A DNA stretch of 60,300 bases, filler included, from Hausera hauseri (GCA_046269625.1; 9 parts of 9 records of this genome joined end to end with filler, not necessarily neighbours in it); one strand, 5' to 3'; shown: positions 1 to 6,934, numbered from the whole stretch's first letter. The notes: generated by a model not told the origin, from the letters alone. Program-made: numbers and translations.

Positions 1-2110
1 TGTCGAAGTGCTTCTTTTACGGCTAGAGTTTCTAATTCGGTAACAGAATAATTTTTCTCGGCCTTCTTCAAGGAACGTCCTCCATAAGCAATTAGGTGTT
101 CCAATTCTTCATCTTCTCTTTTTCGTGCTAATTCATATCAAATACCTTCCTTACTGGCGTCTGTCTTGATTATAAAGGGTAAATTAAAATCTGGATATAG
201 TAAAACTGGTTCACTTGTTTATATCTTCATTTCGTCGAAAGCTTTCTGTTCGACGTCTGTCCATTTCCACTTAATTCTTTTTTTAAGTAGACGATATAAA
301 GGTGCATTAATTTTCGAATTATCTGGCACAGGTTGCGTAATATCCGCAGAGTCCTAGTCAGTGCCTTAACTCTTTCTGGTTTTGCGGTTCCATGCAATCT
401 GATATTTTGTTTAATAACAATTTATCTGGTTTCGATCCTCCTTCTCCAACTATATGGCCAAGATAGGATACTACATTCTGAGCCCATTTACATTTCTTCG
501 GATTTAATTTCAACCCGGCTTGTTCCAAACACATCAGCGTGTGTTCAATATCCTTTAAGTGTTCCTTTTCGGTCCTTGACGCTATCATTACGTCATCTAG
601 ATACGCTAAAGCATGATCCAATCCCATTAACATTTTGTTCATCATTCTCGTAAATATGGCTGTCCCGGTAGTAATACCGAACGGCATGACGTTAAATTCA
701 TAAACACCATCGAGCGTTTTAAATGCTTTCTTATAACGGTCTTCGTCCTCGATCTCTACTTGCCAATATCCGGATTGTAAATCCAGAGTGGTAAACCATT
801 TTGCTGATGAGTCTATCTAAAGCCTCTTTCACTGATGGTAATGAAAAAGAATCCTTCATCATAAGATTATTCAAGGCTCTGTAGTCGATGCAAAATCGAT
901 GTTTTGTGGTACCTTTTTAACCATGAGGATTGGTGAATACCAAGATCTGTAGCTGGGCCTAATTATATCGGCCTTAAGCATTCGTTCGACTTCCTTCGTT
1001 ATCTCAGGCCTTAACGAATGTGGCGGAGGATACCATTTCGGCATCGTTTGATCTTCAAGGTCTATTTCTTCATTCAAACCCGGCTTTTTCTTAAGAGGAA
1101 TAGTCAGCTTTAGTGCTTTTGCCCTACCAATATCTTCTTCGTCCTTAGCGATAATCGATTTATAGCGACATAATAATTCATAGAATCGACAATAAGACTC
1201 AGGTGAAAACTTAGTTTCGACATGTGATGGAAAATCGGCATATTTATAAGGTTTTTATTCAACAATTATCGACAACACTATATACGTATTTCCTAGAGTA
1301 GTATAAGCATGAAGCTTGACGGGGGTCGGTGCGTTATTAGCTATTCTGATTGGCACCCGACCGGTGTGTACTCTTGTTAGTATGTTGCTGAGTATTATAT
1401 TCAAATCCAATGTATCCTTCGGCTCAAAATATACCGGTTGATCGTCATCTTGCTGTATTTGCGCGTAAATTATCATTTCAGTTCTTGGTGGAATGTTTTT
1501 ATCTACTTGTATCCACACTTCTCCAAATTTCCTATCTTTGGCGTTCTTTACGCCTTTATTTGACCTGATTTCTATTAACTTTCCTGTTTGTAAGTCAATT
1601 GCTATATTTGGTAGCCTTTTCAGTAGACCACATCATAAGACGACGTCGTCGGTTAATTGTTCCATAACTGCAAATTCATGACAGAAAAACTGTCCAACTA
1701 TTTGAACTCCTGGGTTCCATTTAAACATCGGTTTCGATATTTGGCCAAAAGATCCTGTACTTCCTGGATCTTTCGTAGATGGTGGGTATATTTGTCTTCG
1801 CAGCGTTTGAGGTACTGAATCATTTTTGTGTAAGACATCTCAGAACCTGTATCGATTAATGCATAAACTTCCCAATCTTCAATAGTGACTTTGGTGAAGA
1901 GTCTTCCTTCTATTACTGTTACGCAACAGTTTGATGCAACTTTTGGGCGTTTAGTCGCCGATATTTTATGTCAGTTGATTCGGATTTCTGTGGAGGATAC
2001 TATATTTTCCGACAATTGTCTTAATTCGCCGTTTGGATATAGCTCATTATTTTCTATGTTCAGTTCTTCCGTTTCATGAGTACTGATTAATGGTTCTCGT
2101 TTGTTAGTGT
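1..2110 (-). pseudogene. pol: Ty3/Gypsy-type pol (protease - RT - RNase H), disrupted, running off the window start
   Basis: Minus-strand motifs in order: protease VTIEDWEVYALIDTGSEMS (~1835-1890); RT WYSPILMVKK, FTTLDLQSGYWQV, YEFNVMPFG, AYLDDVMI, YLGHIV; RNase H LYPDFNLPFIIKTDAS and AEKNYSVTELETLAV. Multiple stops and frameshifts. Confidence 0.93.
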
Positions 2111-2377
2111 GTGGTTCTATGTTCCGGACGGTTCTTGACCTTGGGTTTCCCAGATAGGTGGTTTAGATTCAATATTTCGAGGTTCTCTCGGGAAATAGAA
2201 TATTCTGCGGTCGTTAAGGGGCTGTCGATAAAACATTTTCCGTAGGACTCCGTAACGTTTCGTTCCTTCATAGGGGTCCTCTAAACTAATTGTCCTTTTA
2301 TAGATTTCCGTCTGATATGAACTCATTGATCGTTTGTCACAGTCTTCATAGACTGGAGCGGTAGGGGGTAGCATAGG

Positions 2378-4405: not shown

Positions 4406-6934
4406 TTAATTTTTCCAGTAGCCAACGTCCATCGATGTCAAACTACGTAACATATCGTCGAGCTTATTACTGGTCCGTCTGTCTTCTTCCTTGTCAAATA
4501 GTCTCGACCAATTTACTTCGCAGGGCAATCTTCTCGCTGCTCTTCCTGCTAAGCTTATAGCTCTATTGATTTCGTTTTCCCGATTAGGGTCTATTTTGAT
4601 AGCTAAGTATAGTAATATTTTTCTCAATTGCTCATTGGTGTTCTCTACCATGATCTTTTCGATTACAGATTCGTCGGTTAGGTTACTTTTCGATAGTTTA
4701 AAACGTGAACTTCTCATCATTCTAACTGCACTGAATATGACCTTTTCTTTCTAATCTAGTGTATCACCTCAAAGGCTCGAATAATTTACAATTCGTATCA
4801 AATTCTTCATTAATTCGCTTAATTCTTCATTATCTCTGCTGAGAGTCGGAATTGACATTTGTCTCAGTTCTCTAATTAATTCTCCATTGTAGTCCACTTC
4901 TTCTCGCGTTTTCTTAGGCCTGCCGACTGGACGTTTCGGCCTTGGTCCTTTGGTGGTTATTTTACTCAGTGGTAATAAATTTATATCGTATTGTTCCTTG
5001 TCCAAATCCGTTTGTAAATACTCGAAATACATTGCAGCGTCTCGGACTCCCATAATTTATCCCACACATTGTTCCGTCTTGGCTTTACGTGTAGCTTCTT
5101 CTTTTGTTTGTTCATTGGTTATTACTACCACCATTCGATTTGTTTCGTCGAGAATAATTCCGACGTCTATTAACTGTTCTAAATCATATAGTATTCTACC
5201 TCTAAAATAGAATATATAGTTTAACTTGTTCGTTCCGTCATTATTCAATAACCATTCTCTTACGTCCTTTACATATGAATATGTAGTTAACTCACATTCT
5301 TTTTCAACCATCCACTCAGACGATACCACTACTTTCATCGCTACCTCAGGTTTAGCCCTTAAGATTTTAGCGTATTTCCTTATCAAAAGCCTCGGCACCG
5401 TGCTATAAATTGTGTTCTTACTAGATAATTTAGTTAAGGTCGGAATAAGTTGTCATAGTTTATTTTCATCAATGTTTACGTTAATTATGTCAATTAAATC
5501 CTTTTCAGTTAGCGCTGAATCCAGGAGCATCTCCACATTGAACTTCTTGTTCTGCGGGTACGTTTCTATTTCATTTAGGTGTACTGGAGTTATAGGATTT
5601 CCGGCCGTTATCGCTTCTAAATATGCATCCAAATCCGGTTCGTTCCCAATATCTGGAAGTCCAGAGTTGTGTTCGTTCGGAGGCTGTGTTAGTTCTTTGC
5701 ACCTTTTCTCGAATTTCTTTCAATCTTGGTTGTATTTCGCCCATTTCTGTGGTTCGGAAACCCATTCCGTTTCCACAGGCATACTGAATCATTTCCAGTA
5801 ATTCGCCTAATTCATTAGAATTGATGAAGCCCTTTTGGTGATAATCAGTTAGTTCGATAATTACATCTACTTGCCATCTTTATACGAATTCGCGCTTATT
5901 TTTGATCTCTGATTCGGTAAAAGCAAATTTATTTCGGTAGGTTTAGAACTCTTTTGCCAGTTCATCTAGTCTCGTTGCTCTATGTTTTGTTCTGATGCAC
6001 GTTTCTTCTACTTGCTGTAATTTGGGCATCAATTGCCTCATCTCCTCATCATTAATTTCTGCCATTTCTACTAATAGGTAGGCTAACCCATACATCTCGC
6101 TTATGACTTTTGAGTCGGGATCCATCGCATCCAACAATTTCTTTACAAAATTAGATTCTTGAAAATTGAGATGTTGGTCATTTCTTATCTTTGTCAACTC
6201 GGTATGGAAATCCTGATCCGATTCGGTGATCCATTCTTGTGGTTCATGAAAAAATTTTATTGCGTCCGTTAGAGCGACTCTATGTTCGAGACAAATGTCT
6301 AAAGTTTCAATATCTTGGATAAAGATCTTATCGATAGGCTTGTTTGTTAAATCTTGAATTACTTCTCGTCGGATGTCTCTTAACTTTGAGTATAAATTGC
6401 AAGTAATATGTCGCTTTTCTGTAAAGTTCGTTTCTTCGATCATTTTATAAATTTCTTGCAATATCGTTATTTCTTGCTCCTTCTTCATAAAACTTAGTCG
6501 TCTTAATGCTTCGAACCGTGTTCGGATGTCTATTTCTGTGTGTATAGTGTTTCACTTTCCGGGAATTCTTTCTTGCGATCTTTTATTAATTTGCTTAATC
6601 TCGTTATTAATTCGGACCATTCCGACAATTGGTTGGTGATTATCGGCTTTATTAATATTGCCTTGTCTAACATTTTATATGCATCTTTTAATTCATCATC
6701 TGGGCCTTTTAGGAAATTCATAATCCGATTGACATAACTAAACTCATCCTTGTATTCGTCCAATTCTATGATACAGGTTTTTACTACGTATTGAGTCTCC
6801 TTATAATTTTGGAACATAATTAGGATTCTCAAGCTATAAATCTGTGCTCGCTTTTCATTCTCTATTTTGATGCGATTTTCTAAGTTTTTATATTGTTTAG
6901 GTACAGTGAATGCAATTTTTATCGTCTCCATCAA
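4406..6934 (-). pseudogene. Decayed long ORF upstream of the glycoprotein (helical charged domains, ubiquitin-like domain, basic motif)
   Basis: ORFs 5398-5057, 5053-4769, 4720-4406 and 4378-4004 share one frame and are separated only by isolated stops. ORFs 6488-5943 and 5792-5571 share another frame. Coding-like composition throughout. Confidence 0.65.
5116..5338 (-). other. Ubiquitin-like (beta-grasp) domain without C-terminal GG
   Basis: MKVVV..EKECEL..YVKDVREWLLNN..IFYFRGRILYDLEQLIDVGI..RMVVVI parallels ubiquitin MQIFV..TLEV..TIENVKAKIQDK..LIFAGKQLEDGRTLSDYNI..LHLVL; about 74 aa. Confidence 0.65.

Follow-up and report, generated by a model that had tools for sequence, protein, structure and literature searches.

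Contig 1 of the analysed window (60,300 nt of Hausera hauseri DNA, GCA_046269625.1, in which nine contigs are joined with artificial N-spacers) represents the internal portion, now decayed, of a multicopy Ty3/gypsy-type element, with a chuvirus-type fusion glycoprotein (G) placed before pol. The element fills the entire contig (window 1–6941). It is likely a distant Burro-like member of the GAG-ENV-POL retroelements (Arkhipova and Yushenova 2019, PMC6431247; Chary and Hayashi 2026, PMC13524379), and was likely once expressed as one gag-accessory-env-pol polyprotein; we put the probability of this reading at roughly 0.8. The domain order, the homology of four modules to intact relatives with a single open reading frame (ORF), and the multicopy and decayed state are direct observations, whilst strict membership of Burro is unproven. 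The newness is modest, and consists of a divergent multicopy lineage, a reverse transcriptase (RT) outside the crown of its relatives, and ~450 codons of an uncharacterised helical protein.

All modules of contig 1 are located on its minus strand, which is coding from end to end, in the order unknown helical stretch, helical and ubiquitin-fold cassette, signal peptide, G, transmembrane (TM) segment, tail, protease (PR), linker, RT and RNase H (RH) (Table 1). The three minus-strand frames contain 119–165 stops each; the cheapest reading path over 6940 nt incurs 20 stops and 10 frameshifts for a total cost of 40, whereas the plus strand costs 82 and 30 shuffled sequences 103–129. Because the minus-strand cost is far below that of the plus strand and shuffles, we read contig 1 as a single coding region, now decayed, that no non-coding gap interrupts. 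With at least 20 stops and at least 10 frameshifts this copy is a relic, not an intact element; it is dead and cannot encode the polyprotein. The long polyprotein-like frame described by a first-pass annotation of this DNA is accurate as regards continuous coding, likely for one polyprotein, but the frame is not open in contig 1. A Pfam scan of all three minus-strand frames, each stop being treated as X, returned Monjiviricetes_fusion (PF24664), RVT_1 and RT_RNaseH_2 in that order, and tblastn matches of the contig to relatives are collinear (E down to 2e-60); both bear out the earlier description of a retroelement with a chuvirus-type G before a Ty3/gypsy pol, on one contig and one strand. 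There is no LTR-like repeat (LTR, long terminal repeat) in contig 1, the longest direct repeat being 34 nt at 71%, and no CCHC motif in any of its six frames. Together with the path cost, these results agree with the first-pass statement that neither an LTR, a sizeable non-coding gap nor a CCHC motif separates env from protease.

Table 1. Features of the element on contig 1 (window coordinates; Ubl, ubiquitin-like)
Feature	Position	Strand	Basis
Connection/RNase H, cut by contig end	1..330	-	RT_RNaseH_2 E=3.6e-21
Ty3/gypsy reverse transcriptase, YLDD 592-603	337..1040	-	RVT_1 E=1e-29
PR-RT linker, at the place of Burro's reported dUTPase-like domain	1294..1539	-	BLAST to relatives
Aspartic protease, DTG 1845-1853	1600..1949	-	Motif
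Charged/basic cytoplasmic tail leading to pol	1950..2611	-	Coding continuity
Chuvirus/Monjiviricetes-type class III (gB-like) glycoprotein ectodomain and TM (~2672-2728), broken by stops/frameshifts	2612..4339	-	PF24664 E=1.4e-21
Predicted internal signal peptide	4340..4405	-	Hydropathy; hydrophobic stretch at 4396
Helical stretch at the place of Burro's BCL2-like domain	4409..4873	-	Position
Basic stretch with GRP core	4910..4951	-	Translation
Helical and ubiquitin-fold cassette, Ubl part ~5113-5347	5078..5494	-	Profile from 6 relatives
Uncharacterised, probably helical accessory protein, ~450 codons, open to contig end	5600..6940	-	Open-frame pattern

Similarity of G to chuvirus glycoproteins, which had been set beforehand as a test of the first-pass reading, is evident from the PF24664 match. 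A profile made from the G of seven relatives is matched in order, from its position 6 to 612, over 4402–2612; the contig 1 G is 25–30% identical to those of the relatives and keeps 12 of the 15 cysteines conserved in the family. The hydrophobic segment at 4396 and a second one at 2728, assigned by hydropathy to the TM segment, flank the ectodomain. By PF24664, hydropathy and cysteines, the region thus has the predicted signal peptide, cysteine-bridged ectodomain and TM segment of a gB/chuvirus-type ENV.

The intact relatives are single ORFs, 2,700–4,060 aa long, that read capsid and CCHC, then zero to two helical-Ubl cassettes, then G, PR, RT, RH and integrase (IN); additional copies of the protease and one more membrane protein at the far end are common. 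They were found with the pol region (121 hits among 3,389 candidate proteins of 1,272–4,048 aa), PF24664 being present in 8 of the 120 pol relatives listed, all within the top 21, and with the G of one relative, for which 5,760 candidates yielded 14 hits, each carrying PF24664. A 184-aa open piece of G retrieved none of 550 candidates among longer proteins, and none of five pattern matches in viral contigs was confirmed. Of 31 proteins examined, which include several cluster mates and are not independent, 16 carry both G and RT; G comes first in each of these 16, and the capsid precedes G in 11 of them. Contig 1 is collinear with the relatives in the Ubl cassette, G and pol. In eight relatives (P0006, P0007, P0017, P0018, P0020, P0170, P0171 and P0173) the ORF continues for 300–800 aa past the integrase into a predicted membrane protein that has, in most cases, a pair of hydrophobic segments and, in P0017, an Ig domain. 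This protein is a candidate attachment partner of the gB-like fusogen, and we found no description of it in the portions of the Burro and GAG-ENV-POL literature available to us.

The assignment of pol to Ty3/gypsy (Metaviridae), proposed in the first-pass annotation, is upheld by the Pfam matches, the pol relatives and the RT-RH similarity; RT and RH are both of gypsy type, the order is PR-RT-RH, and the RT core is 42–52% identical to family members. A BEL/Pao-type pol is contradicted by the combination of RVT_1 with a gypsy-type RT_RNaseH and gypsy-type polyprotein matches, and no Pao peptidase family appears in the Pfam scan of contig 1. Mosquito BEL/Pao elements with a chuvirus G, reportedly named Anakin, are said to carry env after pol. 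The contig 1 protease has a weak collinear match to the protease of P0020 and no Pfam hit of its own. In a BLAST comparison of the PR-RT linker among 127 proteins, a set itself preselected by a search with the linker region, 15 of 17 matches belong to the family with G before pol; the Pfam scan of contig 1 gave no dUTPase match in this linker. The contig ends fall inside RNase H and inside the upstream ORF, with the integrase and 3′ LTR outside; the near relatives all carry rve and an H2C2 integrase after RH. In 6 of 12 relatives checked, the interval from the env TM to RT contains two DTG/DSG motifs; contig 1 has one. Extra aspartic-protease copies are found in P0006, P0007, P0008, P0010, P0018, P0020 and P0166, several of which have a further copy after the integrase.

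Upstream of G, the cassette profile scores 47.3 bits on contig 1 (E=3e-15), compared with 3.3 bits for the best of 201 controls (200 shuffles and the reversed frame). The predicted model of the corresponding cassette of P0007 (predicted local distance difference test score, pLDDT, of 85) has four helices and a ubiquitin fold, which superposes on ubiquitin with a root-mean-square deviation of ~1.5 Å over ~76 residues; a predicted Ubl domain in contig 1 is supported via homology to this folded relative. Among 15 rows of the cassette alignment, Pfam matches at E up to 1 were obtained for ubiquitin (4 rows) and Rad60-SLD (2 rows). A neurotoxin-domain Pfam match in the cassette of one relative (18 bits, cut-off 25) was rejected as chance in favour of the ubiquitin fold. 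The cassette is tandemly duplicated in P0166, P0169 and P0170, and absent from P0017, P0173 and P0174. The GRP core of the basic stretch, which we take to be AT-hook-like, recurs within the corresponding interval in 7 of 12 relatives. The terminal ~450 codons have a single relative in 1.84 billion representatives, P0175 (150 aa, 39%, E=2e-18), and match no capsid or gag profile and no Pfam family above cut-off; against the family proteins 5561–6941 likewise gave no match, P0175 alone being matched. An Atlas search with parts of contig 1, including this region, gave bacterial matches below 0.9 only and is uninformative. Thus, of the ~850 codons that the first-pass annotation described as helical, Ubl and basic, the Ubl cassette and the basic stretch are supported, whilst ~450 codons still lack a known family.

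The same annotation had proposed a search for a capsid fold in 4406–6934, as part of a structural polyprotein. No part of the window matched a capsid profile that recovers gags from many other gypsy elements, and the ordinary gag of the relatives sits further upstream, with zf-CCHC and a weak Ty3_capsid match, neither of which is present in contig 1. As the cassette follows gag in the relatives, and contig 1 contains neither capsid nor CCHC, the upstream ~850 codons are most likely accessory; by analogy, gag probably lies beyond the contig end, upstream of 6941. An independent envelope capture with inverted gene order and a novel capsid in 4406–6934, the view of the first-pass annotation, is consistent with the low identity and unplaced position of G and with the ~450 codons without a known family, but the relatives share the Ubl cassette and GRP motif upstream of G, the silence of the capsid profile argues against a new capsid, and the gene order is already in print. 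We consider it highly improbable; the Ubl cassette, the G family, the position of G and the PR-RT linker are all common to Burro-like relatives, and the proposed novelty of lineage and order fails, given that a gag-env-pol order has been published (PMC6431247, PMC13524379), with env in frame in Burro/GYPSM1 (PMC6431247).

The known elements closest in description are Burro/GYPSM1, giant gypsy-like LTR retrotransposons of planarians with an ORF of 4,873–5,140 aa, reported to encode Gag, CCHC, Smc, MATH, Ubi2/SUMO-like, BCL2-like, env, PR, dUTPase-like, RT, RH, IN, BIR and ankyrin domains, the env matching mononegavirus fusion glycoproteins (PMC6431247). Contig 1 resembles the published description of Burro in having env between gag and pol in one polyprotein (likely, in contig 1, where gag probably lies outside), with a Ubi2/SUMO-like domain ahead of env, an additional domain or linker separating PR from RT, and a long accessory stretch that follows gag; decayed copies are likewise reported for Burro, in Dugesia japonica. 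It differs in that MATH, BIR, ankyrin, the giant size and LTRs are absent or outside the contig, which is a 6.9 kb fragment compared with the >30 kb and long LTRs of Burro. A further difference is its upstream helical stretch, which has no detected match; all of these comparisons are with the published description (PMC6431247). Some relatives have ubiquitin/Rad60-SLD, Bcl-2 (E=0.0015, below cut-off) and ankyrin matches, which is the domain set named for Burro.

Chary and Hayashi (PMC13524379) describe GAG-ENV-POL Ty3/gypsy 'ancient errantiviruses' with gB/chuvirus-type env in Nematoda, Bryozoa and Platyhelminthes; their supplement contains nine flatworm elements, and its list for the whole study comprises intact elements. 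As in these, ENV lies directly upstream of POL in contig 1, but contig 1 is decayed and is more divergent than the intact relatives are among themselves. The words polyprotein, ubiquitin and fused were not found in the main text of that paper. The Schmidtea elements Smed_errantivirus_1-6 (cysteine type C1a; PMC13524379) have the same gene order, Ty3/gypsy pol and env type, with motifs and cysteine spacing that are alike by eye. Domains I–II of G in the window and its relatives appear closer by eye to the six Schmidtea C1a rows than to the bryozoan, nematode and insect rows in the part of the alignment seen.

The nematode endogenous retroviruses of Sacco et al. 2022 are said to have a single gag-env-pro-pol ORF. 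As described in PMC13524379, they have env before pol in a metavirus-like element, like contig 1; the nematode ENV rows seen (18 of 36 in the supplement) are less like the contig 1 G than the Schmidtea rows. The BEL/Pao elements of mosquitoes that carry a chuvirus G share the glycoprotein family of contig 1 (PMC7642597). Cer1 of C. elegans was rejected as a comparison, since its extra ORF follows pol and is not an env (PMC10309623).

Evidence that the element is multicopy comes from sequencing run X1, in which 23,731 short contigs aligned to contig 1, covering 30 of 30 bins including the G-pol junction; 1,267 aligned at ≥99% identity, 4,017 at 95–99%, 10,825 at 90–95% and 7,622 at <90%. Because all bins are covered, mostly at 90–95% or lower, we interpret these as a multicopy, diverged family that spans the junction. 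No RNA dataset was listed among those with the contig 1 sequence, which has no bearing on expression. A nested insertion or misassembly that set the env from one element ahead of a different element's pol has a negligible probability in our view: contig 1 is a short-read contig without read-level linkage, but it has neither an LTR nor a non-coding gap, its TM-to-RT distance (563 codons) is inside the range of 12 relatives (417–902 aa), the junction bins are covered in X1, and all 16 intact proteins with G and RT have G first, which makes nesting or rearrangement unlikely. These observations favour a genuine architecture over the separate nested elements or rearranged tandem named in the first-pass annotation.

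Several points weigh against assigning contig 1 to a Burro-like polyprotein element. The contig lacks gag, integrase and LTRs; the comparison with Burro and the Smed elements was by eye or by published description alone; X1 is one run with the contig 1 sequence, possibly the source sample, and its short contigs give no copy number or long-range linkage; and the processing model set out below is inferred and is here drawn from sequence only. A BCL2 homology search of the helical stretch between the Ubl cassette and env gave no match with a profile from four relatives or with Pfam; a single-sequence model of 4412–4873 (pLDDT 41) is unusable, and a BCL2-like domain at this place is not evident in several intact relatives either. 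Finally, a stop at 4406–4408 directly precedes the signal peptide in the same phase. The first-pass description of an in-frame signal peptide following the upstream codons is right as to phase, but the frame is interrupted by this stop, so 'in frame' can mean only the same phase. If the stop is genuine, env would be a separate, spliced or read-through ORF and there would be no single gag-env polyprotein, a possibility to which the exact position of the stop at the boundary lends some weight, as do relatives recorded as two ORFs (P0010 and P0018, for example, begin after gag). About 20 other stops, however, are scattered over contig 1, no ATG occurs from the stop to the beginning of the signal hydrophobic core, and in the 13 relatives shown a signal peptide of the same position and make-up lies where the frame runs through. 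We regard a separate env ORF as very unlikely.

The phylogenetic results also belong among the points of doubt. RT-RH trees were calculated from 72 rows (the window and 71 of 125 extracted rows; LG+G4) and from 38 rows (the window and 37 others; a mixture model, for which the bootstrap had not settled), the latter set being used for the approximately unbiased (AU) test; eleven gene models of Cordylochernes were excluded from the trees. The relatives are united in a clade with support of 100/100 (72 rows) and 100/99 (38 rows), with the window outside it in both trees and without a supported sister; the G tree places the window on a very long unplaced branch. Monophyly of the window with the family is not rejected by the AU test (p=0.46), which does not demonstrate it. 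A position outside the crown, seen in both trees and in one of them weakly next to a Caenorhabditis protein (85/93, unstarred), would be expected of a recombinant in which a Burro-like accessory-env block was joined to pol from another gypsy lineage, and GAG-ENV-POL elements are reported as not monophyletic on pol (PMC13524379). Set against this are the AU result, the best RT, RH and linker scores, which go to the family (the best 12 RT+RH scores of the window are all family members), and a long branch lengthened by decay; recombination appears unlikely, although a swap of pol is possible. The simplest reading of the similarity ranks and trees would be a deep sister of the family. The fuller proposal, that contig 1 represents a high-copy deep sister of the Burro-like group outside the crown of 20 sampled relatives, in a host that is maybe not a planarian, and with ~450 codons of an undescribed helical accessory protein, is tentative, and we hold it with well under even confidence.

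If contig 1 derives from a Burro-like polyprotein element, one mRNA would yield one polyprotein, of which Gag and the accessory region with its Ubl cassette would be made in the cytosol. The internal signal peptide would then thread G into the endoplasmic reticulum, with signal peptidase cleaving after it; the TM segment would act as a stop-transfer sequence, returning the tail and Pol to the cytosol, where the element protease is presumed to free PR, RT-RH and IN. Gag and Pol would in this way be made tethered to the membrane that bears the class III fusogen, and we propose that this tethering would favour the release of enveloped particles by budding and their spread between cells. For reverse transcription and integration, the usual route of LTR elements would apply. 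Through its Ubl cassette the element could interact with the ubiquitin or SUMO pathways of its host, a possibility on which Arkhipova and Yushenova speculate in the case of Burro.

Five other contigs of the window (15503–22358, 22459–27678, 27779–34870, 34971–44445 and 55288–60300) contain decayed elements with 63–72% DNA identity among themselves, and gypsy-type RT, RNase H or integrase Pfam matches occur in four of the five. Since none of these contigs matches the G profile, we treat them as a family separate from contig 1. At 38415–40004, just upstream of a gypsy coding region, lies a fragment of a KDM5/JmjC histone demethylase (JmjC, KDM5_C-hel), decayed and apparently without introns, a state consistent with capture of a host mRNA. 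On the minus strand at 21633–22356, upstream of another gypsy element, a WD40 repeat precedes a Pro/Met-rich stretch; PRP19, WDR33 and WDR5 score alike (E ~1e-8), and the segment is likely a WDR33-like host fragment. Contig 2 (7042–15402) consists of a long, degenerate array of TCTG/TGTC microsatellite repeats that contains N runs, and 44546–50655 has internal repeats of ~360 and ~150 nt at 73–74% identity, with broken transposase-like frames by eye.

The architecture is an odd one, in which a single polyprotein, by the processing outlined above, would cross the membrane twice and yield Gag, a class III fusogen and Pol. It is already in print, and a decayed fragment adds little to it; contig 1 is valuable as a divergent data point from which to date the capture of env, and as a pointer to intact relatives of 2,700–4,060 aa in public data, which are suited to studies of topology and of the role of the Ubl cassette. 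If the deep-sister placement is true, it would date the gag-Ubl-env-pol polyprotein to an early flatworm or older ancestor, and the Burro-like elements would represent a stable lineage of enveloped retro-transcribing viruses, not a planarian oddity.

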